Assembly (NCBI GenBank): GCA_035509615.1
Contig: DATJLK010000098.1
Coordinates: 5,314-69,313, forward strand
From: Stellaceae bacterium
GTDB taxonomy: Bacteria; Pseudomonadota; Alphaproteobacteria; ATCC43930; CGMCC-115725
DNA length: 64,000 bases
Reading direction: 5' to 3'
The translations under genes and the position numbers were made by a program. Below, piece after piece: positions 2 through 22,453 of the stretch; positions within the stretch are counted from its first letter, which is position 1, and every line of letters starts with the position of its first letter. Below the pieces are notes generated by a model, which saw only the letters and a list, made by a program, of their open reading frames with translations, had not been told where the DNA came from and ran no database searches.

Positions 2-88
2 AAGACCTTTGGCGTAAAGATCAGCATCCGCCAGATATTCGAAACGCACACGAATGTCGCCGCACTGGCTTCCTTCATCACCGAAACG
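2..88 (+). other. C-terminal fragment of an ACP/PCP carrier domain (rest lies upstream of the window)
   Basis: FGVKISIRQIFETHTNVAALASFI resembles the helix after the phosphopantetheine Ser of carrier domains. It is in frame with the downstream aminotransferase domain. Confidence 0.6.
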
Positions 89-3000
89 ATGCCCGACGAC
101 CGTTGGGCCCACCTTGCAGCGCGAACCCCGGCAGCGCGAACCCCGGCAGCGCGAACCCCGGCAGTTGAACCGAGCAGCCCGTCCCCGCCATCGCGTCGCG
201 CACCGGCGGAGTCGGCGCCTGCTTTGGTCCCGCCCGCGGCGCAAACATCGGCGGCGCTGATTTCGCACGCGCCGGCTGCTCCAGACGAAATGGCGGCTGC
301 CTCGTTGGCAGCACTCTGCCAGCAGCAGTTGCAAGTATATGAACAGATCGTCTCGAAGCAACTTGCCGCTTGTAATGGCGGTCTCGTCGGCAGTCCCCAG
401 ACCTTGCCGAGCGCGGTCCGGATCGGCCGTCACGGCTCGCTGTCGGATGGCATCGCCGATACCGCTGCCAAGCTCAGCGCGAACCATTCGGACGACCCGA
501 ACCACGTTTCCGCGGCAAATCATGGCGTGCCCGCCGCTTCCGGAAATCAACAGCCGGCAGACTCGGTACTCCCGCCCTGGAAAGTCGCGGAAGTTCGGGC
601 GCGCGGACTGACGCCGCCGCAAGCGGAGCATTTGGAGAAGCTGATCGAGCGATATACGCAGCGGACACGAGGTTCCAAGCAACTGGCACAAAGTTATCGC
701 CGCATGCTGGCCGATAATCGCGCCGCTGCCGGTTTTCGCTTTTCAACAAAAGAAATGCTCTACCCGATCGTCGCCGACCGGTCGCAGGGTTCGCGAATCT
801 GGGACGTCGATGGGAACGAGTATATCGACATTACGATGGGTTTCGGGGTCTATTTATTCGGGCACAATCCCGAGTTCATCACGAGGGCGCTCCGCGATCA
901 GTTGGACCATGGCATCCAGCTGGGGCCGCAAACGCCGCTGGCCGGCCCGGCGGCGCAACTGGTCTGCGATTTAACCGGAATGGAGCGCGCCTATTTCTGC
1001 AACACCGGGACCGAAGCCGTGTTCACCGCGATCCGCTTGGCGCGGGCCGTCACGCAGCGCAAGCGGATCGCGATATTCAACGGGTCGTACCACGGTCACT
1101 CTGACGGTGTGCTGGGCGAACCGATCGACGGCAATGACAACCCGCAGGCGCTACCGCTGGTAACCGGGATTCCGGATGGGGCATTGGCCGATGTGCTGGT
1201 GTTGAAGTATGGCGAGCCCGATTCCCTGCGAATCATCCGCGAATATGCCGGCGAGCTGGCGGCGGTACTGGTCGAGCCGGTGCAGAGCCGACGGCCGGAT
1301 TTTCATCCTCGGGAATTTTTGCACGAGCTGCGCACGCTGACGGCCGATGCCGGCATCGCATTGGTGTTTGACGAAATGATCACCGGATTTCGCATTCATC
1401 CCGGCGGCGCGCAGGCTTGGTTTGGCATTCGCGCCGACTTGGCGACCTATGGCAAAATCGCCGGCGGCGGTTTGCCCGTGGGCATTGTAGCCGGCTCGGC
1501 CCGTTTTCTGGATGCGATCGACGGCGGCTACTGGGACTACGGCGACGCGTCCTACCCACGCGCCGAAACGACCTTCGTGGCCGGAACATTCAATAAGAAC
1601 CCGTTGTCGATGGCCGCGATCCACGCGGTGCTCGCAGAGATTAAACAGCGTGGACCAGCCCTACAGCAGCGGCTCAATGCGCGGACAGCCGATCTGGTCC
1701 GGCGTCTCAACGACGTGCTCGAACGTGAAGGCGCGCCCATTCGTGTCGTGAATTTCGGCTCGCTGTTTCGTTTTAAGTTCGCCGGCAACATGGACGTGTT
1801 CTTTTTCCATTTGCTGGAACACGGGATCTACGTGTGGGAAGGACGAAACTGCATCCTATCGGACGCGCACAGCGATCAGGATATTGACGCGATCGTGCGG
1901 GCGGTCGCAGACAGCGCGCGCGCCTTGCGGGAGGGGGGATACTTCGACGACACGGGGCGCATGCCGGACCGAGCAGCGGATGCAGCAACGGGCGGCGGCG
2001 CAACCTCGGCCACGTCGGTCGCCTCGGCTGCACAGGGGACTGGCCGACGCGACCGCCTCGAGCGGCCGCTGCCACTCACACCCAGTGCCGCTGAGAATGG
2101 ATCCGGGGCGAACGCGGAACCAAAAAACTTCTGGCAGCGCGAACGGCACGCCGTGGGCTCGCCGTCAGTCGCAGCTGACGAGCGATCCGCGATCGCCGCT
2201 AGCGAGCGGCATGCCATACAGTTCAGCCTCTTTTTCTTCGGTATTTACGATCCCCACGACCGCGATAAATACCACCTGCTCTTCGAGAGTTCTCGCTATG
2301 CCGACGCGAACGGTTTCTCGGCCGTGTGGGTCCCCGAGCGTCACTTCCATGAATTCGGTGGTTTGTCTCCTAATCCGTCGGTGCTGTGCGCGGCACTAGC
2401 CCGGGAAACTCGCCATATTCATTTGCGTGCCGGCAGCGTCGTCCTGCCATTGCACAATCCGATCCGCGTCGCCGAAGAATGGTCGGTGGTCGACAACATC
2501 TCAGACGGGCGGGTCGGTGTCGCATTCGCATCCGGCTGGAATCCCGCCGACTTCGCGCTAGCGCTCAACAACTTCGGCAATCATCGCGACGCCATGTTCG
2601 CCGGCATCGATCAGGTCCATCGGCTCTGGAGTGGCGAGGCACTGACCACCACCAGTGGCAACGGAAAGGAAGTCGCCGTCAAGCTGTTTCCACTGCCCAG
2701 GCAAGCGAAATTACCAACGTGGCTGACGGTCGTCAACAACCCGGAGACATTTGCCAAAGCTGGAGAAATGGGCGTCGGCATTCTGACGAACTTGATGGCG
2801 CAGGACATCGATCGACTCGCCGAAAACCTCGGGATCTATCGCAAAGCATTGGCGCATCACGGCCACGACGCGTCGCGCGGACACGTAACCCTGCTCATGC
2901 ACACTTTCATGGGGAATGATTTCCAGTCGACGATCGAGACAGCCAGGCGGCCGTTCAAACAATATCTAACCTCGTCGGTCGGTCTGTTTCGCAGCATGGC

Positions 3001-6000
3001 CAAGAGCCAGGATCTTTCCGTCGACTTCGATACGCTGACTGACGACGACAAGGATGTGATGTTCGAACATGCTTACGGATCCTATGTGAAGTCTACAGCG
3101 CTCGTCGGCACCCCGGAATCGTGTTTGCCCCTGGTCGATAAACTCCAGGCCATCGGGGTAGACGAGATTGCCTGTCTGGTGGACTTTGGCGTAGAGCCCA
3201 CTGCAGTACTTAACAGCCTGCCGGTGCTGACCGAATTGAAGAACCTGTACGGCCGGCAGACGGCTTCTTATGCGCACACTGCCAGTTCGGCAACAGAACT
3301 CCGCGCGCAGAACTCCAATGACGCCGAGCTGAGAGTGCCGCTGACCGAAGCGCAGCAGCAACTCGTGCTGTTGTCCCAGATGAACCCGGAGGGCGCCGTC
3401 GCCTACAACGAGCCTGTCGTGCTCGAGCTCAGAGGACAGCTGTGCCTGTACGCGCTGCAACGCGCTGTCGAGTTGCTGGTAGACCGCCACCAGGCCCTGC
3501 GATCACGTATTAATGTCCGAGACAACGAACTCGTGATCGCTTCGCAATGGAAGATCGAGGTTCCGGTGACGGACTTTTCCGGTCTTCCCGACGGCGAAGC
3601 GCCAGCTCATATGGCACGCTGGTTCGCCACCCGGTCGCAGGCGGCATTCGATCTGGAACTGGGCCCGCTGCTGAAGGTCGAAGTCGCAAAACGGTCCGAT
3701 CAAATTTATTATCTTTATCTCTCGGCGCATCACACCATCATCGATGGTGCCGCAATCGGCATTTTATTAACGGAATTGAGCGCGCTGTACAACGCGGCGA
3801 TGCTGGACGCAGCACCGGCTTTGCCGGATACGCTTCAGATCAGCGATTACGCGCAGTGGCTCACGCGGTCCATCGAGACCAAGGAATGGCAACTCCAGAA
3901 GGATTTCTGGATCAACCGGATATCTGCGAGCAGTCCGGCACTGGAGTTTCCGACGGATCGTCCGCGTCCATTACGCAAGACATACCGCGGCCAACGCCTG
4001 ACGGCCACCCTCGATCCGCAGCTCTTGGCGGACATCAAACGAGTGAGTCGGCAGGAAAACTGCACGCTGCTCATGACGCTGTTTGCTGCATACACTGTGC
4101 TGGTGCACCGGCTGGCGGATCAACGCGAGATCGTCGTCGGCATTCCGGCGCTGGGCAGGTCGCTGCCAGGAGGTGACGGCCTGGTCGCTTACTGCGCCCA
4201 CATCATGCCGATCTGCAGCGATGTGCAGTGCCGCCCGCGATTTACGGAACATTTACGAGCCATCCGCTCGGCGTTGCTGGATGCTTACGAGAACCAGGAT
4301 TTTCCATTCGCCAGTTACCTGAACGAACTGAAAATCGTGCGTGATGCCAGTCGAGCGCCACTGGTCGATTACGTCTTCAATTTGGATGGCGAATTGCCCG
4401 CGCTGAAGATGGAGGGGCTGACCGTCGCCTATCATAATCAGCCAGTCTCCACCTCGCGCTTTGACATCAGCCTCAGCGGCGTCGAAATCGATAATCGGCT
4501 GATGCTTTACTGCGACTACAATACCGACCTGTTTGATCACGCAACGATCAACCGGCTGCTAGACTCCTTCCAGACACTTCTGCAAGCGATTGTTCGGTCG
4601 CCGAATGACAATGTCTTCGAGCTGCCACTGCTTTCGGCGAGCCACCGTGAGCGACTCCTAACCGACTTTAATGCGCCGAGCCATCCAGTGCCGGAATGTC
4701 GTCACCAGGCGATCCATCACTATTTCGAAGAGGCGGTCGACAAGGCGCCGGACGCAATTGCCGTCGTACTCCCCGCCACGGAAACCGCCGCTCGTCAAGA
4801 GCTTACGTATTCTCTGTTGAACGAGCAAGCAAATCAACTAGCACATTACTTGAAACAGCGCGGTCTTTCCACGGAAGAGTATGTCGGTATTTATCTCGAC
4901 CGATCGATGGAAGCGGTGGTTGCCGTTTTGGCAATCCTGAAAGCGGGAGGGGCGTATTTGCCGCTCGATCCGGACTACCCACGCGGCCGCATCGATTTTA
5001 TTCTCAAAGACGCCGCTGTGCGTTTCATCGTCACAAAGCAAGCATTGCAAAATGAATTAACGGGGATCGAGGCAGATATAATTTGTATCGACTCCTGCTT
5101 ATCCCAAGTTGTACGACAACCCAAGCACAATCCCGCACACTCTGCCACTGGGGATCAGTTGGCCTATGTCATGTATACATCCGGTTCGACAGGCGACCCA
5201 AAAGGAACCGCGATTACTCACAAGAACGTGACGCGCTTGTTTACCGCGACGGATGCATGGTTTGGCTTCAACTCAAACGACGTCTTGCCGCTATTTCATT
5301 CGCTAGCCTTTGATTTTTCGGTATGGGAGTTGTGGGGTGCATTGGGCCATGGCGGCAGGCTGATCATCGTGACTTACGAAACCAGCCGCACGCCTTCTGC
5401 GATTTACAAATTGTTGACGGACGAACATATGACGGTGCTCAACCAGACCCCGTCGGCCTTCCGCCAACTTATTCAATTCGAACAATCCCGGGCCGAGGCC
5501 AAGGAACTGTCTTTAAGACTGGTGATTTTGGGCGGCGAGGCGCTCGAACCGGCGATGCTGGAACCGTGGATCCGACGGCATGGGGATCAACAACCGCAGC
5601 TGGTCAATATGTATGGAATCACGGAAACAACCGTCCACGTATCGTATCGGCCGATCAGCAAAGCCGATCTCGGCGGCGGGCGCAGCGTGATCGGACGACC
5701 CATACCGGACCTGCAGATCTATATTCTCGATGATCGCGGAGAACCCGTTCCGATTGGCGTTCGTGGTGAAATCCATGTTGCCGGCCCCGGTGTGGCGCGG
5801 GGATATATCCAGCGCCCCGAGCTGACAAGGGAGCGTTTTCGTACGAATCCGTTCGGCAGGGATCCGCGGGATCGTTTGTACCGGACGGGCGATCTTGGGC
5901 GGTATTTGGCCAACGGCGACATCGAGTATTTGGGGCGTTGCGACCAGCAGGTGAAAGTGCGCGGTTTTCGCATCGAACCGGGCGAAATCGAAGCGGCACT

Positions 6001-6631
6001 GGCTGGTCATCCGGCGGTAGCAGAAACCGTGGTCATTGCGGCCGACGACCAACGCGGCGACAAGCGCCTGATCGCCTACATAGTTACACCGCCGGGCGAA
6101 GCGAAGGCGCCTGCCGCCGTCCTCCGGGCCCATCTGAAACACAATTTGCCCGGCTACATGATTCCGGCGGCTTTTGTTCATCTCGAAGCCATTCCGCTAA
6201 CCGCGCATGGCAAGATTGACCGCCAAGCGCTGCCCGCACCCGCGATGAGCGGCGACGGGCCCGACAAATACGTCGCGCCGGGCACCGCCACGGAAGAAGT
6301 CCTGGCGGGAATTTGGAGCGAAGTGTTGTCCATTGAGCGAGTTGGCATTGACGACAATTTTTTTGATCTGGGAGGCCATTCGCTGCTGGCGACCCAACTG
6401 CTGACACGAATACGTCAGGCGTTTCGCATGGATCTGTCCATCACACAACTGTTCGAGGCACAGACCGTGGCCGAACTCGCTCGGCAGCTGACCGCGCTCG
6501 AACCGACGACAGGACAAGTCGAACGGATCGCCAGATTGCGGCGACGGGTATTGGGCATGTCCGCGGACGAGCTCACGCACGCGATTTCCCGCCACAACAC
6601 CCAACGGCAAGCACAACGAGAATCGGCATGA
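2..6631 (+). CDS. Hybrid PKS/NRPS megasynthase, 5'-truncated by the window edge: (carrier)-aminotransferase-luciferase-like monooxygenase-C-A(Thr-like)-T
   Basis: The frame is open from nt 2. The first codons, KTFGVKISIRQIFETHTNVAALASFITET, look like the C-terminal helices of a carrier domain, so the ATG at 89 in the ORF track is internal. Motifs: class-III aminotransferase with PLP Lys in YGKIAGGGLP (codon 1454-1456); LLM motifs IQFSLFFFG...VWVPERHF; C-domain HHTIIDG (from 3728); A-domain YTSGSTGDPKG and NMYGITETTVH; T-domain LGGHSL (Ser codon 6380-6382). The stop overlaps the next start (ATGA at 6628-6631). Confidence 0.92.
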   Translation, partial: KTFGVKISIRQIFETHTNVAALASFITETMPDDRWAHLAARTPAARTPAARTPAVEPSSPSPPSRRAPAESAPALVPPAAQTSAALISHAPAAPDEMAAASLAALCQQQLQVYEQIVSKQLAACNGGLVGSPQTLPSAVRIGRHGSLSDGIADTAAKLSANHSDDPNHVSAANHGVPAASGNQQPADSVLPPWKVAEVRARGLTPPQAEHLEKLIERYTQRTRGSKQLAQSYRRMLADNRAAAGFRFSTKEMLYPIVADRSQGSRIWDVDGNEYIDITMGFGVYLFGHNPEFITRALRDQLDHGIQLGPQTPLAGPAAQLVCDLTGMERAYFCNTGTEAVFTAIRLARAVTQRKRIAIFNGSYHGHSDGVLGEPIDGNDNPQALPLVTGIPDGALADVLVLKYGEPDSLRIIREYAGELAAVLVEPVQSRRPDFHPREFLHELRTLTADAGIALVFDEMITGFRIHPGGAQAWFGIRADLATYGKIAGGGLPVGIVAGSARFLDAIDGGYWDYGDASYPRAETTFVAGTFNKNPLSMAAIHAVLAEIKQRGPALQQRLNARTADLVRRLNDVLEREGAPIRVVNFGSLFRFKFAGNMDVFFFHLLEHGIYVWEGRNCILSDAHSDQDIDAIVRAVADSARALREGGYFDDTGRMPDRAADAATGGGATSATSVASAAQGTGRRDRLERPLPLTPSAAENGSGANAEPKNFWQRERHAVGSPSVAADERSAIAASERHAIQFSLFFFGIYDPHDRDKYHLLFESSRYADANGFSAVWVPERHFHEFGGLSPNPSVLCAALARETRHIHLRAGSVVLPLHNPIRVAEEWSVVDNISDGRVGVAFASGWNPADFALALNNFGNHRDAMFAGIDQVHRLWSGEALTTTSGNGKEVAVKLFPLPRQAKLPTWLTVVNNPETFAKAGEMGVGILTNLMAQDIDRLAENLGIYRKALAHHGHDASRGHVTLLMHTFMGNDFQSTIETARRPFKQYLTSSVGLFRSMAKSQDLSVDFDTLTDDDKDVMFEHAYGSYVKSTALVGTPESCLPLVDKLQAIGVDEIACLVDFGVEPTAVLNSLPVLTELKNLYGRQTASYAHTASSATELRAQNSNDAELRVPLTEAQQQLVLLSQMNPEGAVAYNEPVVLELRGQLCLYALQRAVELLVDRHQALRSRINVRDNELVIASQWKIEVPVTDFSGLPDGEAPAHMARWFATRSQAAFDLELGPLLKVEVAKRSDQIYYLYLSAHHTIIDGAAIGILLTELSALYNAAMLDAAPALPDTLQISDYAQWLTRSIETKEWQLQKDFWINRISASSPALEFPTDRPRPLRKTYRGQRLTATLDPQLLADIKRVSRQENCTLLMTLFAAYTVLVHRLADQREIVVGIPALGRSLPGGDGLVAYCAHIMPICSDVQCRPRFTEHLRAIRSALLDAYENQDFPFASYLNELKIVRDASRAPLVDYVFNLDGELPALKMEGLTVAYHNQPVSTSRFDISLSGVEIDNRLMLYCDYNTDLFDHATINRLLDSFQTLLQAIVRSPNDNVFELPLLSASHRERLLTDFNAPSHPVPECRHQAIHHYFEEAVDKAPDAIAVVLPATETAARQELTYSLLNEQANQLAHYLKQRGLSTEEYVGIYLDRSMEAVVAVLAILKAGGAYLPLDPDYPRGRIDFILKDAAVRFIVTKQALQNELTGIEADIICIDSCLSQVVRQPKHNPAHSATGDQLAYVMYTSGSTGDPKGTAITHKNVTRLFTATDAWFGFNSNDVLPLFHSLAFDFSVWELWGALGHGGRLIIVTYETSRTPSAIYKLLTDEHMTVLNQTPSAFRQLIQFEQSRAEAKELSLRLVILGGEALEPAMLEPWIRRHGDQQPQLVNMYGITETTVHVSYRPISKADLGGGRSVIGRPIPDLQIYILDDRGEPVPIGVRGEIHVAGPGVARGYIQRPELTRERFRTNPFGRDPRDRLYRTGDLGRYLANGDIEYLGRCDQQVKVRGFRIEPGEIEAALAGHPAVAETVVIAADDQRGDKRLIAYIVTPPGEAKAPAAVLRAHLKHNLPGYMIPAAFVHLEAIPLTAHGKIDRQALPAPAMSGDGPDKYVAPGTATEEVLAGIWSEVLSIERVGIDDNFFDLGGHSLLATQLLTRIRQAFRMDLSITQLFEAQTVAELARQLTALEPTTGQVERIARLRRRVLGMSADELTHAISRHNTQRQAQRESA
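116..164 (+). repeat. Perfect 15-bp tandem repeat (gcagcgcgaaccccg x3 plus a 4-nt partial copy) encoding (AARTP)3 in an interdomain linker
   Basis: Read directly: units at 116-130, 131-145 and 146-160 are identical. The unit is 5 codons, so the repeat is in frame. Confidence 0.95.
600..1940 (+). other. In-line class-III (GSA-aminomutase-like) PLP aminotransferase domain (AMT)
   Basis: GSRIWDVDGNEYIDITMGFGVYLFGHNPEFI, CNTGTEAVFTAIRLAR, FDEMITGFR, YGKIAGGGLPVG. The same domain type sits in-line in MycA (mycosubtilin/iturin) and McyE. Borders approximate. Confidence 0.85.
2215..3250 (+). other. In-line luciferase-like (FMN-dependent) monooxygenase domain of the natural-product LLM type
   Basis: IQFSLFFFG..YHLLFESSRYADANGFSAVWVPERHFHEFGGLSPNPSVL..LRAGSVVLPLHNPIRVAEEWSVVDNISDGRVGVAFASGW. 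No carrier domain lies between it and the following C domain. Borders approximate. Confidence 0.8.
4720..6240 (+). other. A domain, module 1, Thr-like code
   Basis: Hand alignment to GrsA positions 235-331: FDFSVWE / VLNQTPS / VILGGEA / NMYGITETTVH gives D-F-W-N-I-G-M-V-H, which matches the classical Thr code DFWNIGMVHK. Confidence 0.6.
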
Positions 6632-9600
6632 GTGACAATGCCCCGCAGCAAGAAGAGCTGTTCGAGCTGCTGCTTCAACTGGAAGGTATCGATCTCAAAC
6701 CGGCGTCGACGATCGCTCGCCGCTCCGACCGCAACGAAGCGCCGCTGTCGTTCGCGCAGTCGCGCTTATGGTTCCTTGATCAGCTCGACGGCCCGACCCC
6801 CAACTACAACATGCCTGGCGCGCTTCGCCTGGATGGCGAGTTGGACGTTGATGCTCTACGCGTCAGCTTAGGTGAGATCCGCAACCGCCACGATATATTG
6901 CGCACCCGTTTCGTCAGGCGCGGTGACGAACCGGTGCAAGTGATCGACCCACCGGACAATTTCGCGCTGCCGGTCGTCGATCTAACCGACTTGAACGCGC
7001 GTGACCAGGCAACGAGCTTCCAGCATCTGGCGCGGCAAAACGCGGTGCAGCCTTTCGATCTCGCGCTGGGCCCGTTGCTTCGCCTCCAACTAGTACGGCT
7101 TGAGCCTCGTCGGCACGTGCTGCTGTTCGCGACACACCACATTATTTCCGACGGCTGGTCGATCGGGGTGCTGATCGGTGAGCTGACGGTGCTGTACAAA
7201 GCGCGGCGCGACCGCGTCATTCCCGAACTGCCCGAACTGGCGATTCAATACGCCGACTACGCGCAATGGCAACACGCGCATTTGACGCGCGAGTCGTTGG
7301 AACCGTCTCTGGCTTACTGGCGCGAACGCCTCGCCGGGGCGCCCGAAATACTGGGTCTACCCACGGATCGGCGTCGCCCGCCGGTACAAACCTACGACGG
7401 CGGCACGCATCGCTTTCAGATCGGGCCGGAGCTGACGGCACGCCTGCGACAGCTGAGCCGGCAATGCGATTGCACGCTGTTCATGGTCCTGCAGGCTGGG
7501 TTTGCCGCCCTATTGTCACGCTATAACGGTTCCGACGATATCGTCTTCGGGATGCCGGTGGCGAACCGGACCGTGGCCGGCATCGAACCGCTGATCGGAT
7601 TTTTCGCCAACACACTCGTCCTGCGCACGGATTTGTCGGGAGACCCGACCGTCGCCGAATTGATCGCGCGGGTGCGCAGCGCGTTGCTCGGGGACTTGGA
7701 ACATCAGGAGTTGCCATTCGAATTTCTCGTCGACGAGCTGCAGCCACGACGCAACCTGAGCTTCACGCCCCTAATTCAGGCAATGTTGACCCTGCAAAAC
7801 ACCCCCCAGCTTGATCTGGAACTACCCGGCTTGACCGTATCGATCGAAGAGTGCGCGACGAACATTGCCAAGTTCGATATTACGCTGGCGTTGCACGAGA
7901 CCAACTTGGGGCTGGCCGGCGAAATCGAATACAACACAGATCTGTTTGATGCAGAAACGATCCGACGGATGGCAGGGCACTTCCGAAATCTGCTCCGGGC
8001 GATGGCACGCGAGCCCGCCGCGCGGGTATCCGAAGTGGACTTTCTAAGCGCCGATGAAGTCGAATTGTTGCTGCACACCTGGATCGACACTGCGACCGAC
8101 TTTCCGCGCGACAAATGCATTCAACAACTGTTCGAGCAGCAGGCGGCCGAAACCCCTGACGTCACCGCATTGGTGTTCTGCGACCGGCAATTGACCTATG
8201 CCGAGTTGAACGCTCGCGCCAACCAGGTGGCTCGCCATTTGCGCACGCTCGGTGTTGGCCCAGAAGTCGCTGTCCCGATCATTTGCGAGCGTAGCATCGA
8301 GTTGATCGTCGGCATTTTGGGCATCCTCAAAGCCGGCGGTGCTTACGTGCCGCTGGACCCGAAGTATCCTGCCGACCGGCTCGAGTACATGTTCCGCGAA
8401 GTAAAGAGCCCGGTGGTGTTGACGCATCGAGCTTGCGCCGGTCACCTGCCACAAGACGCGGCGGCCCGGCTCTTGCTCGACGATGACTGGCCCGAATTTG
8501 CCCGGGAGAGCCGCGAAGACCTGGAGCATCACACGCAGCCGGACGGTCTAGCCTACATCATCTTCACCTCCGGTTCGACCGGCCGTCCCAAAGGGGTCCG
8601 CGTTGTCCACGACGGCGTCGTACGGTTGGTTAAGCACACGAACTACGTCAGTCTTTCCGCAGATGAAGTGATTCTGCAGTTGACGCCGATCTCCTTCGAC
8701 GTCTCGACATTCGAGATCTGGGGCAGTTTGCTCAATGGCGGCCGGCTAGTCGTGCCGCCGCCGGGGATCCCGTCGTCGCAAGAGATCGGTCGCCTCATCA
8801 AAGACTACGGCATCACGACGATGTGGCTGACCGCCGGGCTATTTCACCTGCTGGTGGACGAGAACCTCGAGGGGCTGCGACCGTTGCGGCAGCTTCTGGC
8901 CGGCGGCGACGTGCTCTCGGTGTCGCATTGCCGTCGCGTGTTGCGCGAGCTTCCCGAGCTACGGCTGATCAATGGCTACGGGCCGACAGAATGTACCACC
9001 TTTACCACCTGCTGCACGCTGACGGAAGCGACCATCGGCAGTTCGGTGTCGATCGGCCGCCCAATCTCGAACACCAAGGTTTACATCCTCGATGAACACC
9101 GCAAGCTCGTGCCGCCCGGATGCGCCGGCGAACTCTGCGCCGGTGGTTACGGATTGGCGCGCGACTATCTAAATGACCCGGAGCTAACGGCCGAAAAATT
9201 TATCCGCGACCCGTTCGACGACACCCCCGGCGCGCGGCTATATTGCATCGGCGATTTATGCCGTTACTTGCCCGACGGCAACATAGAATATCTGGGGCGT
9301 ATCGATCGGCAGGTCAAAATCCGCGGCTTCCGGATTGAACCGGGGGAAATCGAAACGGTGCTTGCATTGCACGATGCTGTGCGCGACTGCACCGTGACGG
9401 CACGCCCGGACCGGTTCGGCAACAAACGGTTGATTGCTTACGTCGTTCCGACCGACACGCACCACCCTCCAGACGAGGAAGATCTCCGCGCCTTTCTGTC
9501 TCAACGGCTGCCCGAGTTCATGGTCCCGGCGGCCTTTGTGACATTGGATAGGCTGCCGCTGAACCCCAGCGGCAAGATCGACCGCGATGTCTTGCCGGCT

Positions 9601-12600
9601 CCGAAAGCGTTTGTCGACGAACAGGAATTCATCGCACCGCGCACGGAAACCGAGCGCGCGCTGGCGGCGATCTGGTCGCGGCTGATGGGCGTCAGCCGCG
9701 TGGGCATTCACGATAACTTCTTCGCGGTCGGCGGACATTCGCTGATGGCCATCCGATTGGTCGCGCGCATCCGCGATCGCTTCGCTGCTGAACTGCCGGT
9801 TCGTCAAGTGTTCGAATTACCCACGATTGCTGGGCTGGCGGAGTATCTGGATGGCCAGGCTGACACCCGAGAGCCCCGTCTGCCGCCGATTTTCCGTCGG
9901 CCGCGAGAACGGGAGCCGCTGCTTTCGCTTGCGCAGCAGCGTCTCTGGTTTCTCTATCAACTGGACCCGCACAGCGCCGCCTACAATGTTTCGGTTGCGC
10001 TGCGACTGACCGGACGGCTGCGCATAGATCTGCTCGTGCGGTGTTTTCAGGAAATTGTTGGTCGGCATGAATCGCTGCGGACCAACTTTCTCCAACGCGA
10101 CGGCGGGGCCGTGCAGGTGGTGCATGAGCAGTGTCGCGTAGAGTTGGAATCGCGGGATCTGAGTGCGCTGCCAACGGACGAACGCGATTCTACCTGGCAG
10201 CAACTGGCGCAGGCCGAGGCCCTGCGACCGTTCGAGCTGGAAAGCGACTCCCTGCTTCGACTGTTCTTGATAGGGCTGGCGGAAAACGATCAGGTGCTGG
10301 TGGTGACGATGCATCACATCATCTCCGATGGCTGGTCACTTGGCGTTTTATTCGACGAATTCTCTCAGCTCTATCGCGCCTTCGCGGCCGGAGAGCCATC
10401 ACCGCTTGACGAGTTGCGGGTTCAATATGCTGATTTTGCTGCGTGGCAACGGTCTTGGTTGAACAGCGATATCCTGCAGCGGCAGTTGGCTTACTGGCGG
10501 GCGCAGCTCGACAGCGCCCCGACGCTGCTGGAATTGCCAACTGACCGGCCGCGGCCTGCCGTACAGACATATCCGGGACGGACCCATCTCTTCGAAATTG
10601 ACGCCGAGTTGACGGCAGGTCTGCGCCAGTTCAGTCGCGAGAGCGATAGCAGTCAGTTCATGACACTGCTCGCCGCGTACGCAGCCATCCTGTCCCGCTA
10701 TAGCGGCCAGGACGACATCGTCGTCGGTTCTCCGGTTGCTAATCGCAAACACAGCGACACGGAAGCTTTGATCGGCTTTTTCGCCAACACGCTGGCGCTA
10801 CGGGTCGATCTGTCGGGAGACCCGACGTTTCGCGAGCTTCTCGCGCGGGTCCGCGAGATGACATTGGACGCTTTTGCCCATGACGACCTGCCACTGGAAC
10901 AGCTTGTCGAGGAGTTGTCGCCGCAGCGGAATCTGGGGCAGTCGCCGATCTTTCAGACGCTCTTCGTCTTGCAGAACGCTCCGCTGCCGGACCTTGAGTT
11001 ACCGGACCTCGAACTGACAATCATCGACCAGCCGTTGCGGATCGCCAAGTTCGACCTGACGCTCACGTTGGAAGAAACGGACGGAAGACTGCGGGGGGAA
11101 TTCGAATACAATACGGATTTGTTCGAAGCCGATACAATCTCTCGCCTGGCGACGCACTTCGAGCGGTTTCTGCGTGATGCCGTTGCGCGTCCGGACCAAT
11201 ACGTCTCGCGACTGCAAATTCTATCCGTTGCGGAATGCGAGCGATTGTTAATCCATTGGAACCACGGTGAGATCGTCGATGACAGCGTACCGTGCGTCCC
11301 GCAATGGTTCGAGCGGCAAGCCGCCCTCACGCCCGACGCCACGGCACTGGTCTTCGACCACCAGAGCTGGACCTATCACGAGCTGAATGCAGGCGCGAAT
11401 CAACTCGCCCGCTTTCTCCGCCGCCGGCGCATAGACACAGATATTCCGGTCGGTCTTTGCCTGGAACGAAGCTACGAAATGGTCGTCGCACAACTGGGCG
11501 TGCTCAAGGCCGGCGGTGCTTATGTGCCGCTTGATCTAAGCTACCCGGAGGAGCGATTGGCTTTTATGATCCGTGACACGGGCATGTCGCTGCTGCTCAC
11601 GGAAGCAAAGTGGCTCGCTCGTCATCCGCAGGCTTCAGTGGAATCCGTCTGTTTGGATTCGGATCGGACGCCGATCGCCGGCGAAAGCGAGGCCAATCTC
11701 CCCACCTCGCCTGCGCCCGATGATCTGGCATACATCATCTACACTTCCGGATCCACCGGCGAGCCCAAGGGCGTCATGGTCCCTCACAGAGCGCTGGCCA
11801 ACCACATGCAATGGATGCAGCGGACGTTTGCCATCACCTCGGGGGACCGTGTGCTGCAAAAGACGCCGTTCAGCTTCGACGCGTCGGTGTGGGAATTTTA
11901 TCTGCCATTATTGACTGGAGGCGTCCTGGTTCTCGCAAAACCGGACGGGCATTTGGACAGCGAGTACCTTGTTGAAGCGATCCGCGAGCACCGGGTGACG
12001 GTGTTTCAGGGCGTGCCATCGTTGCTGCGGATGCTGGTCGAAACTGCCGGCTACCAGGATCTCGATTCACTGCGCTACGTGTTCAGTGGCGGCGAGCCGC
12101 TAACCGCCGACCTGCGCAACAAGCTGTTTGGGGCTTCGCGCACCGCGGTGTGCAATCTTTACGGTCCGACCGAGGCCTGCATCGACGCGACGTTCCAGGT
12201 GTGCTCGCGCGACGAAACAGTGCAGGCGGGTGCGCTCGCGGTTCCGATTGGGCGGCCGATCCAAAATGCGACCGCGTATGTTCTCGACGAACATCAGCAG
12301 CCGGTCCCCGCGGGCGTGGCCGGAGAACTTTTCCTAGGGGGCGCACCACTCGCCCGCGGCTATTGGAACCGGCCAGAACTGACCGCAGAGAAGTTTGTCG
12401 ACAACCCCGTCGGTGACGGGCGGCTGTTCAAGACAGGCGATCGAGTGCGCTGGTCCAGGGACGGCCACCTCGAGTTCCTGGGCCGCACCGACGATCAGAT
12501 CAAGCTGCGCGGCTTCCGCATCGAGCTCGGCGAAATCGAAGCGGCCTTGCGTACGCACGAGACGGTCCACGACGCCGCGGCGGTCGTCAGCACCGGCCGG

Positions 12601-15600
12601 CCCGAAGATCCGCGTCTGATCGCGTTTGTGCAGCCGGCCGGGGCGCAGAACGTGTCGATCTCCGAACTGCGTTCGCGCCTGAAGGATCAAATGCCCGAAT
12701 ACATGATCCCAAGCGCGTGGGCGGTGCTTGAGCGATTACCACGGCTGCCGAACGGCAAGATCAACAAAGCGGCGCTGCCTATCGAGGAAGCGGTCAGTCC
12801 TGCGGCGCAATCCAAGTTCGCGCCGGCGACCGGCACCGAGGATTTGCTGATATCGATTTGGACGAAGCTTCTCAACCTCCCGCACATCGGGCCGCGCGAT
12901 AATTTCTTTGACCTCGGTGGCCACTCGCTATTGGCGACACAACTAATATCTCGCTTGCGCCATACATTCTCGGTGGACCTTCCCCTCCGCTCGGTTTTCG
13001 AAGGCCCGACGGTCGTTCAACTCGCGCGGGCCGTTGACGACGCTGTGCGGCGCCGGAAGAACTTCGCCCCGTTGCCGCAGATCGCACCGACGCCGCGCGC
13101 GGCTAACCTGCCTTTGTCCTTCGCTCAGCAGCGATTGTGGTTTTTGCAGCAGATAGACGCGGGGAACCCGTTTTATAACATGCCGATGGCCTTAGAGGTC
13201 CGCGGCCCGCTCGACGTCGCGGTGCTGAAACGATCCATCAATAAGGTCGTACAGCGGCACGAGGCACTTCGCACTTCGTTCGCGACCATCGCCGGAGAAC
13301 CGGTTCAAATCGTTCGTTCAAATTTTGAGGTGCCATTCGCGATCGTTGATCTGGGAGATCTGTCTGCCGAGCGGCAGATGGCCGAAATCCGCCGCCATGC
13401 CGAAGCCGAAGCGCTCCAGGTGTTTGATCTGTCAAAGGATCTTCTTTTACGAACTGTTGTGCTGCGGCTCGATGATGATCACCGCGTCCTGTTGCTGACG
13501 ATGCACCACATCGTGTCTGATGGCTGGTCGATCGGGATCCTGGTCGACGAATTGGCGCGCCTTTACGCCGCGTTTGCCAACAACGAGGTGTCGCCACTCG
13601 CCGAGTTGCCGATTCAATACGCGGACTTTGCGGTGTGGCAACGCAAGCATTTGGCTAGTCACGTGCAGGACGTGCAGATGAGCTATTGGCAGCGGCAGCT
13701 TGCCGATGCCCCGTTCTTGCTGGAGCTGCCTGCGGACCACCGCAGACCGGCGGTGCATACTTTTCGCGGCGGACAGGTACCCCTGCGTTTCGATCCCGAT
13801 CTCTCCGAGCAGTTGCGGGTGTTTAGTCGCAACAACGGTGTCACACTCTTTATGACGCTGCTTGCGGGCTTCACAGCGCTGCTGGCGCGCTATACTCAGC
13901 AAGACGACATTCTAGTCGGAACGCCGATTGCCAACCGCAGCCGTGCGGAAATCGAACCGCTGATCGGTTTCTTTGTGAACATGCTGGTGCTGCGCACCGA
14001 CTTCTCGGACGATCCGGATTTCCGCGAACTGCTGCGCAGGACGCTGCGCACGACCCTCGATGCCTACGCACATCAAGACCTGCCGTTCGAACAGCTCGTG
14101 GAGGTGCTGCACACCGAGCGCGACATCAGTCGCAATCCAATCGTTCAAGTCTCGTTCGCGCTGCAGAACGCCCCGATGCCGCCGCTCGAGGTGGAAGGGC
14201 TGCGGCTGCAATCTCTCGAACTCGAGGCGCAGACGGTCCGCTTCGACATCGAGGTGCATCTGTGGGATGCGGCCGACGGGATCGAAGGATATCTGCTCTA
14301 CTACCGCGACATCTTCGAGACGGACACGGTCGCGCGGTTTGGGCGACATTTCGAAAACCTGCTCCGCGCCGCGCTCGTCAACCCGGACGCTCCGGTTTCA
14401 GCACTCCCGCTGCTCGATGCCGACGAACGGCAAGCACGGATCGCAGCGTGGGGTGTGAAACCTGAAGAAGCCGCACCTGCCCGCTGCCTGCATCGCTGGT
14501 TTGAAGATCAGGCGGAACGAACGCCCGACGCCGTTGCTGTCGTTGTTCCGGCTGTACAAGACGGCAGCCAAACCGACACGCGCCAAACGCTGACTTACAG
14601 AGAATTGAATGCGCTTGCGAACCAACTTGCCCACTGTCTGCGCGAGCGCGGGGCCGGACCGGAGGTGCTCGTTGGCCTCTGCATCGGCCGCTCGGTCAAT
14701 CTGATCATAGGCTTGCTCGGTATCTTGAAAGCTGGCTCCGCTTATGTCCCGCTTGATCCCGATTATCCGCGAGATCGGCTGGCATTCATGCTGGAAGACT
14801 CGCGAGCGCCGATCCTGGTCACCGAGAGCCGCTATCGCGATGCGCTCCCGGAAACTTCATGCCATGTTGTACAGATGGACGTGGACGCGGCAACGATCAC
14901 GGCCTATCCACGGCGCAACCCGGCCAGCAAAGCGGCGCCCGAAAACGTCGCTTATGTGATCTACACCTCCGGATCAACGGGCGAGCCGAAGGGTGTGATG
15001 GTTACGCACGCCAACGTTTCGCGCCTGTTTACGACAACTGAACCCTGGTTCACGTTTGACGCCAGCGATGTCTGGACGTTGTTCCATTCCTGCGCCTTCG
15101 ACTTCTCTGTCTGGGAACTTTGGGGAGCGCTGCTGTATGGCGGACAACTGGTAGTCGTGCCTTATTGGGTTAGCCGGTCGCCGGATGCGTTCCGCCAATT
15201 GCTGACTGCAGAAGGTGTTACCGTGCTGAATCAGACGCCATCTGCGTTTCGGCAACTGGTAGCAGCCGACGCGCTCGCGCGTCATCAACCGCTCTTGCTG
15301 CGACACATCATCCTCGGCGGCGAAGCGCTCGACCTTCAGAGCCTGCGACCCTGGTTCGATCGTCATGGCGATGCACGGCCGCAATTGACCAATATGTTCG
15401 GCATCACGGAAACCACAGTCCACGTGACCTACCGTCGGTTGGTGCGGGCGGATCTTGAATATAGCGGCAGTTTGATTGGCCGCCCGCTTCCGGACCTGCA
15501 GTTGTGGCTGCTCGACAAGCATCTGGAGCCGCTGCCTGTCGGGGTGGCCGGAGAGATCTTCGTCGGCGGTGCCGGTGTAGCGCGAGGGTATCTGGATCGC

Positions 15601-18600
15601 CCGGAATTGGATGCGGTACGTTTCATCGCCAACCCGTTTGATAGCGCCGACACTGGGCGGCTCTATCGGACAGGGGATTTGGCCCGTATATTGCCCGACG
15701 GTGACCTCGAATACCTGGGGCGGATCGACGATCAGGTGAAGATTCGCGGCTTCCGCATCGAACTGGGCGAAGTCGAGGCCGTTATCCGCAAGCATCCAGC
15801 GATAGACAACGCCGTCCTCGCTGTCCAGGAAGACGAGCCGGGAGACAAGCGGCTCGTGGCCTATCTGAAGGCGGACCCGTCCTATGCGCCTGAGATCTCG
15901 GGCGGCCATGATTATCTCGTCGAGTACGCCGCCCAATGGCAAAACGTCTTTGACGAGAGCTACGGCGGCGCCGAGGGCGAACTCGGTTTCAACATTACCG
16001 GCTGGAACAGCAGCTACACTGGCCAGCCGATTGCGGCTGAAGAGATGCGGGAATGGGTCACTTCGACTTGTGAGCGGATACTGACCCTCCACCCTAGCGA
16101 AGTGTTGGAAATCGGCTGTGGCACGGGGTTGTTGTTGTCGCGTCTCGCGCGGCATTGTGCTCGCTATTGCGGGGTGGATTTTTCGGCCGTCGCAGTCGAG
16201 CAGGTCAACCGGCTGAAGGCAAAAATGCCGGCGCTTGATCACGTGACGGTTCAGCAGCGCCCGGCACACGATTTCAGCGGAATCGAGACAGAATCGTTTG
16301 ATTTGGTCATTCTCAATTCGGTCGCCCAATACTTTCCGAATCTGGATTATCTCTTGCAGGTCTTGGACGGCGCCGTCCGGCTCGTTCGCCGCGGCGGCCA
16401 TGTGTTTCTCGGCGATTTGAGAAGTTTTCCGCTTCTGCAAGCGTATCATACCTCTGTTCAATTGTTTCAGGCCCCAGACGCTCTGCCGGCGGCGCAATTA
16501 CGGCAGCGGATCGCCCTGCGCATGGCCCAGGAGGATGAGCTGCTGCTCGATCCCTCGTTGTTCTTCGCGCTACAGCAACAGTTTCCGAAGATCGGTGGGA
16601 TTCGCGTGCTGGTCAAGCGTGGCCAGTACAAAAACGAAATGCTGTTGTTCCGGTATGACGTGGTGCTTTCGGTGGGCGCCGAAACGGGAGGTGTTAACGT
16701 CGACTGGATCAACTGGGAGGACGCTCGGCCATCTCTCGCCGACATGCAGAAAACTCTTCAGGGCAAACGGCCCGAGGTGCTGGCAATTTCGGCCGTCCCC
16801 AACGCCCGGGTGCAGACCGAACTGCGGATAGGGGCTTGGCTCGAAACCGCCGCTGACGATGAACCGGTCAAGAGTCTGCGCGGACAATTACAAGAGACGT
16901 CCGGCGCTCCCGATCCAGGGGCCCTCGATCCCGAAGCACTCTTCGAATTGGGCGACGCGCTCGGCTATAGTGTCGAAATCAGTTGGGCCGCGGCCAGTCC
17001 AGAGGGCCGTTTTGACGTCGTTTTCTATAACGGGTCGCGGCCAGACTGCAACCGGTCGGCCGGGCCGCTCGCGCTTCAGCCGCTATACGCCTACGCGACC
17101 AACCCGCTTCGCCGCAAGTTGGCATTGGAGTTGATTCCCAATCTTCGTCGCGCTTTGCAGCAACAACTTCCAGCCTACATGGTGCCCTCGGCATTTGTGA
17201 TGATCGACGAATTTCCGCTGACGGCGAACGGCAAGCTCGATCGCCGTGCTCTGCCGGCTCTGGACGCAACAACCCGCAGCATTGAAAAAAACTTCGTCGC
17301 CCCGCGGACAGACGCGGAACGCATCCTGGTGGAAATTTGGGCTGAGGTTCTTGGTCTCGACCAGGTCGGCGTTACGGAAAACTTCTTCGAATTAGGTGGT
17401 GATTCGATTCTCAGCATCCAGATTGTTTCACGCGCCGTTCAGGCGGGCCTGTCGTTGTCACCACGGCTATTGTTCCTGCATCAAACAATTGAAGAGCTGG
17501 CTGCCGTAATGGCCGATGAGTCACGGGCCCAAGGAGAAACGGATATCGCCTTTGGCGAAGCACCGTTGACGCCGATTCAACATTGGTTCTTTGAGGCTGA
17601 GCAGCCAGAGCCGCACTATTTCAACCAGGCTTTCCTGCTGGAAACGTCTCCGCACCTTGACAGCGAACGGTTGCGACAAGCGCTGCTTCATTTGCCGTCG
17701 CATCATTCCGGCCTGCGTCTGCGCTTCTTTCGTGATGGTGGCGTTTGGCGACAGATCTATGCGGAGGATGATAGTGCCGTAGAATTCACGATCGTCGACT
17801 GGTCGTCGCAGTCGCCGGATGAGCGACGTGCGACGCTGGAAAACATCGCGGCACATTTACACTCCAGTTTGCATCTTGGCGACGGACCACTGATGCGGGC
17901 TGCGCATTTTCAGGGAGCCGCGGGCGAGCCGGGGCGTTTACTGTGGATTGCACATCACTTGTTGGTCGATGGCGTCTCGTGGCGAATCCTGCTCGAGGAT
18001 TTGGAGACGGCCTGCCAACAATTGGAAGAGGGCAAGCCGATCACACTGCTCCCGGCGACAGCCTCATTCAAGAGTTGGGCGCAGCATCTGCAAGACTATG
18101 CCCGGTCTACCAAGCTGCGAGCGGAATTCGAATATTGGCAAAACGTGGCCGCCTCGCCGGTCCGATCGCTGCCATCCGATGGCGTTCCATCGGATGGCGC
18201 TGCGGCGAACGAAGCGTCTGCGCGTGACCACGTCACCCGTAATACCGTGTCGCAGTCGTCGTTTCAACTCTCCACGGAATTGACAGACTCGTTGCTGCAC
18301 GCCGTTCCGCCGGTCTATCGCACGAGAATCGACGAGATACTACTGACGGCACTAGTACAAACCTTTGCCGACTGGGGCGGCGAGCGTGCGTTGTTGTTGG
18401 ACCTGGAAGGTCACGGTCGCGAAGAATTGTTCCCTGACCTGGACGTCGCACGAACCATCGGTTGGTTCACCACTATTTTCCCGGTCCGCCTCAGCTTGCC
18501 AGACGACGAGTCACCCGGGGAAGCGATCAAGTCCATTAAAGAACAACTGAGGCGGGTTCCAAAACATGGAATCGGCTATGGCCTGCTGAGGTACCTGGCC

Positions 18601-22000: not shown

Positions 22001-22298
22001 TGCACCGGGATCGGAGACAGAACAACAAGTCGCGGCGATTTGGGAGCAAGTCTTGAACCTGAAAGAGATCGGCGTCCACGACAACTTTTTCCAACTGGGC
22101 GGGCATTCTCTCACAGCCATGCAAGTGCTCTCGCGCATCCGCGATGTGTTCCAGATCAAGCTTTCACTGCGCATGTTGTTCGATCTGCCGACCGTGTCCG
22201 AGTTGGCCCGACGGATCGAAACGCATCAAACCGCGCATTTCGCCTCACACACCTCTGGCGCCGAGGATGGGGACGAAATTGAGGAAATATCGATATGA
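19053..22298 (+). CDS. NRPS, single module: C(DCL-type)-A(Gln)-T
   Basis: The N-terminus VEDIYNLTPLQQGMLFH and HHILLDGWS are typical of C domains that accept a D-configured donor after an E domain. A-domain motifs YTSGSTGRPKG and NLYGPTETCIDAT are present, with T-domain LGGHSL. The acidic C-terminal tail is GAEDGDEIEEISI. The stop overlaps the next start (ATGA at 22295-22298). Confidence 0.93.
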   Translation: MNDDRLVEDIYNLTPLQQGMLFHGLYTPDSSAYWEQLCLTLCGDLDPVAFRYSWQDVVARHPALRTHFHWEELDEPLQVVQSEVRLAWHEEDWRSLSPSAFDIRLRELLDADRQCGFDFGKPPLMRFYLIQGPGDSFTFIWGHHHILLDGWSGAIVFLDLAAFYEARCQGEVARLPRPRPFRDYILWLQDQDDQPSRTFWRSHLQQIPGPAKVQVGELISGAKPIPQRYRQQARTLSKSATDCLQSFLRRNRLTLNAVIQGAWSLLLSHYSGEFDVVFGTVVSGRSPDLHGAEHMVGLLINTIPVRVVLDPAAEVQPWLHNLQAAQVERGRHAHLSLAEILSCSGLPPDIPLFETILSVENYPVGALSDQYPSTFRIERLEAFEQTNYPLAVVVSPDDGGIVLKITADADRFARETVERMLIHFANLIVGIAERPAARLVDLALEPAVNLPLQPGTSYAPERRSDGAGIHRCFEWQAQQTPQATAVISETGSLSYGELNERANRLARYLQDQGTGPDDLVGICANRSLEMVVALLGVLKSGGAYVPLDPGYPVERLRFMLADAGLSLVLTDPSLPVALGEELTTGSPLATRLVDLKRHKHLFAGYAADNIRGDSTTAEDLAYVIYTSGSTGRPKGVMITHGALLNHMHWMIGEFSFHDPVRVLQKTPFSFDASVWEFFLPLMCGGTLVLAKPDGHQDLDYLVDIIRARQISVLQGVPSFLELLVAHEGFGACTSLTHVFSGGEILTESLRQRLQARISAVFCNLYGPTETCIDATFHVCPADGNPATNDRVPIGRPIANAFVSVRDAWGHIAPLDVAGELWIGGQGLARGYWNRPELTEEKFVLDPAGSGRVYRTGDLVQRRSDGTLQFLGRLDQQVKLRGYRIELGEIEAVLEQHPAVGRAIVVVGKDHSDRSYLVAYIMPSGDREGIEAKVCETMRQMLPSYMIPVNCVVVDNFPQTPNGKVDRRQLSTWQPPSALSNGYIAPGSETEQQVAAIWEQVLNLKEIGVHDNFFQLGGHSLTAMQVLSRIRDVFQIKLSLRMLFDLPTVSELARRIETHQTAHFASHTSGAEDGDEIEEISI
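20455..21960 (+). other. A domain, module 5, Gln code
   Basis: FDASVWE / VLQGVPS / VFSGGEI / NLYGPTETCIDAT gives D-A-W-Q-F-G-L-I-D, identical to the module-3 code. Confidence 0.6.
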
Positions 22299-22453
22299 AG
22301 TCAGTCGACGACTTTCTGGCGGAGCTAGGGGGCGCCGGTGTCCAGGTCTCGGTCGACGGCGACAACCTGCGGTGCCGCGCGCCAAAGGGACGACTCACAC
22401 CTGAACTGCGTCGCGAAATTACGCTGCGCAAAGCGGAAATTCTCCAGACCCTC
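22295..22453 (+). other. TubC-type N-terminal NRPS docking domain
   Basis: MKSVDDFLAELGGAGVQVSVDGDNLRCRAPKGRLTPELRREITLRKAEILQTL matches the pattern LxxLxxxGVxLxxxGdxLrxxAPkGxLTPELrxxixxxKaELLxxL of TubC-like docking domains. Confidence 0.7.

Follow-up and report, generated by a model that had tools for sequence, protein, structure and literature searches.

PuwE, a part of the puwainaphycin/minutissamide synthetase of Cylindrospermum alatosporum, is described (PMC4219810) with the domain string KS-AT-ACP-AmT-Ox-C-A-PCP, and a 3-amino-2-hydroxy unit is proposed there; the same paper gives the β-amino fatty acid of iturins as unhydroxylated. Aminotransferase (AMT) and luciferase-like monooxygenase (LLM, or Ox) domains are also present in RmyA of the ralsolamycin/ralstonin synthetase of Ralstonia solanacearum (PMC4989320), and the ralstonins, made by RmyA/RmyB, contain 3-amino-2-hydroxyoctadecanoic acid (PMC9659194). 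Among the microginin genes, micD encodes an LLM domain; the microginins themselves contain Ahda (PMC9594780). MupA, an FMNH2-dependent class C flavin monooxygenase that requires added FMN reductase, α-hydroxylates an ACP-bound β-keto thioester, but not the β-hydroxy analogue (PMC10952193).

The locus described here is located at the start of a 64,000-nucleotide stretch of DNA from a Stellaceae bacterium, referred to below as the window. We consider it likely that the region represents the tailoring core of a PuwE-type KS-AT-ACP-AMT-Ox-C-A-T protein, in which the LLM followed by the AMT would give 3-amino-2-hydroxyacyl-S-ACP.

Domain organization of the hybrid PKS/NRPS protein

All features are located on the + strand, where an ORF scan of the window finds frame 2 open from nucleotide 2 to the stop at 6631. 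Since the frame is open at the window edge, the gene begins outside the window, which contains the 3′ part (2..6631, 2209 codons) of a hybrid PKS/NRPS gene, identified by its Pfam and NCBIfam domains. The N terminus absent from the window is provided by an overlapping metagenome contig, L085, identical to nucleotides 1–319 of the window except for one added 15-nt repeat unit and one SNP. The N-terminal KS-AT-ACP, which includes no KR or DH, was therefore read from the contig of a related strain, outside the window itself, and the two pieces together give a deduced full protein KS-AT-ACP-AMT-LLM-C-A-T. Reading the translation of L085 by eye, we found the KS motifs DTACSSS, EAHGTGT, and NFGHLE, as well as the AT motifs GHSLGE and HAFH, which mark this AT as malonyl-type. 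The preceding protein on L085 ends with ER-KR-ACP and runs off the contig end.

The PP-binding match on L085 (aa 967–1034 of the upstream piece, with the serine motif GADSL) continues into the window and reaches its aa 1–~28, identifying 2..85 as the C-terminal part of the ACP, the presumed carrier of a β-ketoacyl intermediate, where the original prediction had placed a carrier fragment. As the upstream KS-AT-ACP module has no KR, β-ketoacyl-ACP is expected as the substrate, as had been proposed from the window alone. The AMT (608..1951) and the LLM (2222..3241) that follow are correctly bracketed by the predicted limits of 600–3250. The AMT is placed after the non-reducing KS-AT-ACP and before the C domain that starts at aa 1112 and opens the first NRPS module, C-A-T (3335..6487), assigned from Pfam domains and motifs. 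This module comprises Condensation (aa 1112–1553, motif HHTIIDG), AMP-binding (1575–1935), AMP-binding_C (1995–2071), and PP-binding (2100–2162) matches, and its A domain has the Thr-like code DFWNIGMVHK. From the ACP fragment up to aa 2124, the Pfam search gave no PP-binding match and the motif scan no GxDS-type serine motif. In the string KS-AT-ACP-AMT-Ox-C-A-T, the AMT, Ox, and C domains follow one another without a carrier, which bears out the predicted absence of a carrier between the two tailoring domains and ahead of the C domain.

Both interdomain linkers are rich in small residues and proline, with A+P+S+G+T amounting to ~0.53–0.56 of each, compared to 0.36 in the whole protein. The ACP–AMT region (86..607, ~174 aa) is mostly predicted to be disordered, as judged from its composition and from AlphaFold pLDDT values <50 at aa 42–99 and 123–193. 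The AMT–LLM linker (1952..2221, 90 aa), which is Ala/Arg/Gly/Ser-rich and lacks a carrier motif, is predicted on the same grounds to be disordered, with pLDDT <50 at aa 652–734. The linkers were originally described as unusual, but both lie inside the ranges found in homologs, 39–189 aa (median 129) for the ACP–AMT spacer and 6–103 aa (median 33.5) for the AMT–LLM spacer. The first linker carries the perfect AARTP triplication noted previously, encoded by 3.3 copies of the 15-nt tandem repeat GCAGCGCGAACCCCG (116..164; TRF, 100% matches). On L085 the AARTP unit is present four times, exactly one unit more than in the window, and the copy number thus varies among related strains.

The ACP–AMT linker is nevertheless not featureless, since it includes a conserved helical "QQL" motif, SLAALCQQQLQVYEQIVSKQLAA (287..376). 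The pattern (L/M)(E/D)xI(M/V)xQQLxVMxQQLxxL could be aligned in each of 15 homolog linkers, whether the LLM is present or absent, and AlphaFold places a helix at aa 96–125 (pLDDT ~61–66), flanked by disordered stretches.

Predicted active sites of the aminotransferase and the monooxygenase

The first tailoring domain is assigned as a class-III (GSA-aminomutase-like) PLP aminotransferase of the MycA-AMT type. The Pfam scan matches Aminotran_3 at aa 254–613 with 169 bits, and aa 203–649 align with the structures of the MycA AMT (6KFM, 6KFR, and 6KFU) with E = 1.8e-155. The predicted Schiff-base lysine for PLP, Lys485 (codon 1454..1456, motif YGKIAGGG), occupies a column that is invariant in alignments of 50 and 113 sequences and faces YGKIIGGG of MycA, so that the comparison with MycA originally suggested finds this residue in place. 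The cofactor-binding Asp457, also in an invariant column, is kept, as are 88 of the 89 columns conserved at a level of at least 95% in the family alignment. The AlphaFold model of the domain has pLDDT mostly 80–98.

The second domain is assigned as an FMN-dependent luciferase-like monooxygenase of the MupA/Atu3671 family and PuwE-Ox type. The NCBIfam model TIGR04020 is matched over its entire length (aa 741–1080, model positions 1–341 of 341) with 490.8 bits (cutoff 244.45), and Pfam Bac_luciferase with 139 bits. The PuwE chain of PDB 6KET is a full-length match (E = 3.4e-146), and LuxA (1BRL) can also be aligned along the full length. In the AlphaFold model, strands and helices alternate and pLDDT is mostly 80–97. 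Taken from the Bac_luciferase match, the alignments with 6KET and LuxA, and this model, the predicted fold is a luciferase-like (β/α)8 barrel. Both domains are thus folded confidently by AlphaFold and only the linkers are left disordered, and the order AMT then LLM is as originally assigned.

Residues Glu779, Arg780, and His781 of the LLM (codons 2336..2344, motif PERHFH) align with Glu43, His44, and His45 of the luciferase active site in LuxA (1BRL_A, 6KET), and at the sites mapped from LuxA, which also include Asp850, the residues are those of PuwE. Although 65 of the 69 conserved columns are kept, among them those of these four residues and of the stretch GSVVLPLH, position 855, near the active-site loop Asp850–Phe851, is a leucine in place of the proline found in all 66 other family members; three further departures (A796C, L833I, and P957A) are milder. 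The P855L substitution, as well as the lack of a flavin reductase in the visible flank, could be taken to mean that the LLM is catalytically silent or purely structural here, with a plain β-amino fatty acid made as in the iturins. The large ORFs scanned in the ~29 kb that follow the NRPS genes include no flavin reductase gene, and neither do the called genes of a contig, L081, that covers ~27–48 kb of the window. However, LLMs of the two-component kind commonly make use of a reductase from another locus, as was done with MupA, and the full-length TIGR04020 match together with the kept columns and active-site residues make a silent LLM very unlikely. In both domains the putative catalytic residues look intact, with the reservation of Leu855 in the LLM.

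It is more improbable still, to the point of being hardly credible, that the LLM carries out a different reaction, such as N-oxygenation of the amine, a Baeyer-Villiger-type or C–C cleavage, or an F420/FMN-dependent reduction of the β-keto group. The LLM superfamily does include F420-dependent reductases and other oxygenases, and structures of such types in the PDB are matched weakly (E = 6e-8 to 4e-4), but PuwE (E 3e-146) and the MupA family model are the nearest relatives by far. In addition, the products of AMT-LLM pathways, puwainaphycins and ralstonins, carry a 2-hydroxy-3-amino unit, and the chain must remain attached for transfer to the intact C domain.

Proposed chemistry and probable order of the two reactions

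The chemistry proposed here follows homologous pathways and their products. The upstream module ending in ER-KR-ACP would deliver a saturated fatty acyl chain, to which KS-AT-ACP would add one malonyl unit; with no KR, a β-ketoacyl-S-ACP would remain, and both AMT and LLM would work on this single ACP-bound intermediate. The LLM, with reduced FMN and O2, would hydroxylate the activated α-carbon, the reduced FMN probably being supplied by a flavin reductase encoded elsewhere, and the PLP-dependent AMT would convert the β-keto group to a β-amine. The resulting product would be 3-amino-2-hydroxyacyl-S-ACP, in agreement with the original prediction and, by analogy, with the proposal made for the same domain string of PuwE (PMC4219810); it would also correspond to the fatty acid of the ralstonins. 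The C domain would then hand the acyl group to the first, Thr-like, amino acid, and another seven NRPS modules together with a TE would finish the peptide. Judging from iturins and puwainaphycins, the TE probably cyclizes the chain through the β-amino group.

Because MupA hydroxylates only the β-keto thioester, analogy with it suggests that hydroxylation precedes transamination, and that the domain order is not the reaction order. The reverse sequence, in which the AMT first forms a β-aminoacyl-S-ACP and the LLM then hydroxylates C-2, would lead to the same product. The AMT is ahead of the LLM in all 82 single-protein homologs, which favors this sequence, and the puwainaphycin paper, in its available part, names both activities and leaves their order unfixed (PMC4219810). 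A β-amino thioester, however, would be poorly activated, and in Calothrix sp. HK-06 the physical order is the opposite, an ACP-LLM protein being followed by one that consists of AMT-C-A-T. This split arrangement indicates that the LLM can directly follow the carrier, ahead of the AMT, and that the physical order of the two domains is unconstrained. We regard the AMT-first sequence as unlikely and retain hydroxylation followed by transamination. In the literature searched, no in vitro work demonstrating the activity of an AMT-Ox pair as such was found.

Comparison with known systems

The AMT-LLM arrangement is, on the evidence of homologous sequences, already known, as seen in the match of the Ox domain to the PuwE chain in PDB 6KET and in no fewer than 82 protein clusters, spread over numerous phyla, that have the two domains in the same order. 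One proteobacterial metagenome-assembled genome has the identical string KS-AT-ACP-AMT-LLM-C-A-T. The closest match to the didomain in a collection of 5.8 billion proteins is only 56–60% identical. The locus adds a fairly divergent example (≤60% identity in that collection), from what is probably an uncultured soil alphaproteobacterium, and leaves the understanding of AMT-Ox chemistry unaltered; of interest to specialists are the order in which the two tailoring domains act and what the conserved helix of the ACP–AMT linker does.

The 3-amino-2-hydroxy acyl motif is a pharmacophore-like unit of microginins and bestatin-type protease inhibitors, and also occurs in the membrane-active puwainaphycins, so that new members of such pathways would be useful for genome mining and pathway engineering. 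We can tentatively entertain a joint reading, somewhat short of an even chance, in which the locus encodes an undescribed puwainaphycin-like cyclic lipo-octapeptide of an uncultured soil alphaproteobacterial producer, with a functional QQL helix. The predicted peptide would be 3-amino-2-hydroxy fatty acid-Thr-Val-Gln-(Me)Thr-Gln-Thr-NMeAsn-Pro. If true, it would imply that cyanobacteria and proteobacteria have exchanged this biosynthetic logic, the helix would be a docking or dimerization element, and one carrier would visit Ox first and AMT second.

Compared to the puwainaphycin system, the locus is similar in the reducing, PuwB-like PKS module (...ER-KR-ACP) that precedes, as well as in the downstream end of the NRPS, where a Pro-like module and a TE come after an Asn-like module that contains a methyltransferase, an end resembling the NMeAsn-Pro end of puwainaphycins. 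The latter are cyclic decapeptides, whereas the cluster here has eight A domains; a Thr-like residue stands in place of Val as the first amino acid, the linkers exceed those of PuwE in length, and the source of the locus has ~60% G+C and flanking genes that look alphaproteobacterial, not cyanobacterial. The domain string of PuwE (PMC4219810) is nevertheless identical to that of the window protein. RmyA, by its published description, has the same AMT and LLM domain types, but differs in a fused FAAL at its start and in four NRPS modules within the same protein (PMC4989320). The AMT of MycA (mycosubtilin/iturin) aligns over 447 aa with the PLP lysine conserved and likewise sits between KS-AT-ACP and C-A-T, although the MycA-type locus recovered from Bacillus siamensis shows no LLM, unlike the window. 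MupA of the mupirocin pathway, the namesake of TIGR04020, belongs to the same NCBIfam family as the LLM, but it is a free-standing, trans-acting enzyme of a trans-AT PKS and the keto group of its product is reduced, whereas the LLM described here is a cis-fused domain that has an AMT as its partner.

Domain organization and upstream sequence

Translation of frame 2 on the plus strand is uninterrupted from nt 2 until the stop at 6631 (2209 translated residues), and since it remains open right to the window edge, the start of the gene falls outside. Pfam and NCBIfam scans of these residues yielded one coherent domain order, consisting of Aminotran_3 (residues 254–613, 169 bits), the full model of the MupA/Atu3671 family of luciferase-like monooxygenases, TIGR04020 (741–1080, 490.8 bits against a cutoff of 244.45), Condensation (1112–1553, 268.6 bits), AMP-binding with AMP-binding_C (1575–2071, 304.6 and 53.8 bits), and PP-binding (2100–2162, 71 bits). 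Alignment to the solved aminotransferase domain of MycA widened the boundaries of the aminotransferase (AMT) to residues 203–649 (nt 608–1951), with the TIGR04020 match placing the luciferase-like monooxygenase (LLM) at nt 2222–3241. The aminotransferase and luciferase-type assignments of the original prediction are thus borne out by the profile scans. Neither a PP-binding match nor a GxDS-type motif was found before residue 2124 by the Pfam scan and motif check, so that AMT, LLM, and the C domain are consecutive, as had been proposed, and the idea of a carrier hidden within either linker was rejected. Two minus-strand open reading frames (1151–1624 and 2966–3490) were set aside as spurious, since, in our judgement, such frames often arise on the strand opposing a long gene where G+C content is high.

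The sequence preceding the window was retrieved from JGI metagenomes with an exact 34-nt pattern of the window start, which identified contig Ga0335075_10041020. This contig matches nt 1–319 of the window except for one additional 15-nt repeat unit and one SNP, and the window, itself part of a 96.5-kb contig, is 99.5–99.8% identical to ENA and JGI soil-metagenome contigs (the public contigs differ by 0.2–0.5%). On the upstream contig the reading frame begins approximately 1014 codons further upstream and encodes KS-AT-ACP, in which a domain scan found neither KR nor DH, whereas the preceding protein, which runs off the contig, ends with ER-KR-ACP. From this arrangement the full protein is deduced to be KS-AT-ACP-AMT-LLM-C-A-T, with a reducing PKS module supplying the chain. 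The AT carries a HAFH motif, which we take to be malonyl-type, and the expected cargo of the ACP at the window start is a β-ketoacyl thioester with an unsubstituted α-methylene. The upstream PKS protein (4053–6551 of the contig, minus strand) ends, after its ER-KR-ACP, with an acidic C-terminal tail, and the protein that follows has a coiled-coil-like N terminus; these two elements look like a docking pair of PuwB-like and PuwE-like subunits.

Integrity of the tailoring domains and their linkers

Both tailoring domains appear well preserved in their conserved positions. The AMT aligns with the crystal structures of the MycA aminotransferase (6KFM, 6KFR, and 6KFU) at an E value of 1.8e-155 and retains 88 of the 89 columns conserved at ≥95% in a 113-sequence alignment, among them D457, the GTEA motif, and K485 (within YGKIAGGG), the predicted PLP lysine. 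The LLM matches over its full domain the structure deposited as 'PuwE', a subunit of the puwainaphycin synthetase (6KET, E 3.4e-146), and keeps 65 of its 69 conserved columns. At the sites mapped from LuxA (E43/H44/H45, C106/R107, D113, R125, and T179), the aligned residues of the window are those of PuwE. Position 855 (nt 2564–2566), located just past the D850–F851 loop, is Leu in the window, whereas it is Pro in all 66 other members; the remaining three departures are A796C, L833I, and P957A. Assignment of this domain as an F420 reductase or another non-oxygenase was rejected, such matches being far weaker than that to PuwE. In AlphaFold models built with a 50-sequence alignment both domains were folded confidently, with residues 42–99, 123–193, and 652–734 disordered.

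The spacers on either side of the AMT had been described as unusual, a view that the homologues do not support, since both are long yet within the observed ranges. The AMT–LLM spacer comprises 90 residues (6–103 in homologues, median 33.5), and the ACP–AMT spacer approximately 174 residues (39–189, median 129, n = 62). The ACP–AMT linker contains the motif (L/M)(E/D)xI(M/V)xQQLxVMxQQLxxL, common to all 15 aligned homologue linkers, including those of AMT-only systems, and carried by AMT-only and AMT-LLM assembly lines of several phyla. In the window the motif corresponds to residues ~101–127, and AlphaFold places a helix of moderate confidence at residues 96–125 (nt 287–376). In an otherwise disordered linker, this modeled helix may possibly serve in docking or dimerization. 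The AARTP triplication is indeed present as a perfect 15-nt tandem repeat, found in three copies in the window (nt 116–164) versus four in the upstream contig (170–229, minus strand). This difference is a copy-number polymorphism in the disordered linker, of the kind that slippage within a tolerant segment would produce.

Probable substrate and order of reactions

In the best-supported reading, AMT and LLM would both work on a single ACP-bound β-ketoacyl intermediate, yielding 3-amino-2-hydroxyacyl-S-ACP, and the C domain would then condense the 3-amino-2-hydroxyacyl group with the first amino acid. This reading draws on four supporting pathways, RmyA and micD among them. The ralstonin synthetase RmyA of Ralstonia carries both aminotransferase and luciferase-like monooxygenase domains (PMC4989320), and its products, the ralstonins, contain 3-amino-2-hydroxyoctadecanoic acid (PMC9659194). 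The microginin gene micD bears an LLM domain, and Ahda is present in microginins (PMC9594780). Conversely, the MycA-type locus of Bacillus siamensis shows no LLM, and iturin-family lipopeptides are devoid of the 2-hydroxy group (PMC4219810).

Direct biochemistry on the order of the two reactions was found in the literature search for MupA only, the monooxygenase of the mupirocin pathway that gives TIGR04020 its name, which hydroxylates the α-carbon of an ACP-bound β-keto thioester and does not accept the β-hydroxy analogue (PMC10952193). By analogy with MupA, hydroxylation most likely comes before transamination in this protein, despite the physical order of AMT followed by LLM. That the physical order is variable is shown by the opposite, split arrangement in Calothrix sp. 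HK-06 (L002, 9449–17605), where FAAL-ACP-KS-AT is followed by a separate ACP-LLM protein and then by AMT-C-A-T-C on the next protein; this variant fits a hydroxylation-first order. MupA also requires an added FMN reductase (PMC10952193). No flavin reductase gene was found among the large open reading frames in the ~29 kb downstream of the NRPS genes, nor among the genes of a metagenome contig covering ~27–48 kb of the window, so that a housekeeping reductase is the likely source of electrons.

Downstream assembly line and comparison with known systems

Seven more NRPS modules are encoded in nt 6628–34210, giving eight A domains in the whole assembly line. The gene at nt 6628–19011 has three A domains, the third of which holds a methyltransferase, along with three T domains and four matches to the Condensation family; the last of these four may be an epimerization domain. 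It is followed by a C-A-T gene (nt 19053–22298) and by a gene (nt 22295–34210) encoding a TubC_N docking domain and then C-A-T-C-A(MT)-T-C-A-T-TE, such that methyltransferase inserts occur within the A domains of two of the seven further modules (4 and 7). A type II thioesterase (nt 34239–35039) comes next, and the remaining ~29 kb is devoted to unrelated metabolism. The specificity codes of the A domains were obtained by comparison with a GrsA reference. We take DFWNIGMVHK (modules 1, 4, and 6) to denote Thr, DVFWLGGTFK (module 2) a Val-like residue, DAWQFGLIDK (modules 3 and 5) Gln, DATKIGEVGK (module 7) Asn, and DVQFIAHLCK (module 8) a Pro-like residue. The peptide predicted from these codes is Thr, Val-like, Gln, (Me)Thr, Gln, Thr, (Me)Asn, Pro-like, followed by TE; its (Me)Asn-Pro-TE end resembles that of puwainaphycins, a likeness that is suggestive only.

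Within the downstream flank, a minus-strand gene (38623–42654) encodes a 1343-residue protein in which MprF-like lysyl-phosphatidylglycerol synthase domains are joined to a C-terminal VirJ/AcvB domain. Its relatives are numerous in soil metagenomes (60–85% identity), and named ones from Xanthobacteraceae (61%) and Aliidongia (~51%) place the source approximately, in Alphaproteobacteria. We can speculate that such a gene might help the cell withstand membrane-active lipopeptides. Nearby (~43085–44100, minus strand; 15810–16829 of the overlapping contig L081), two short neighboring gene calls of 102 and 132 residues both match the Sulfatase family, which suggests a fragmented, pseudogenized sulfatase gene.

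The original observation of the didomain is confirmed and its interpretation is essentially right. The closest relatives of the didomain in the protein collection search are only 56–60% identical to it, and the best match in a scan of GTDB species-representative genomes, from Calothrix, reaches 61%. The didomain is widespread. Both Pfam domains occur together in over 80 of the clusters listed in the protein collection search, with representatives from Streptomyces, Methylacidiphilales/Verrucomicrobiota, Acidobacteriota, Burkholderiales, Myxococcota, and cyanobacteria, and the AMT precedes the LLM in all 82 homologous proteins that contain both; a proteobacterial MAG carries an identical eight-domain string. 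Since an LLM adjoins the AMT in only four of the best 80 AMT-containing loci in species-representative genomes, the AMT-LLM form accounts for a minority of MycA-type AMT modules, although its members are numerous. The arrangement has been published before and is not novel.
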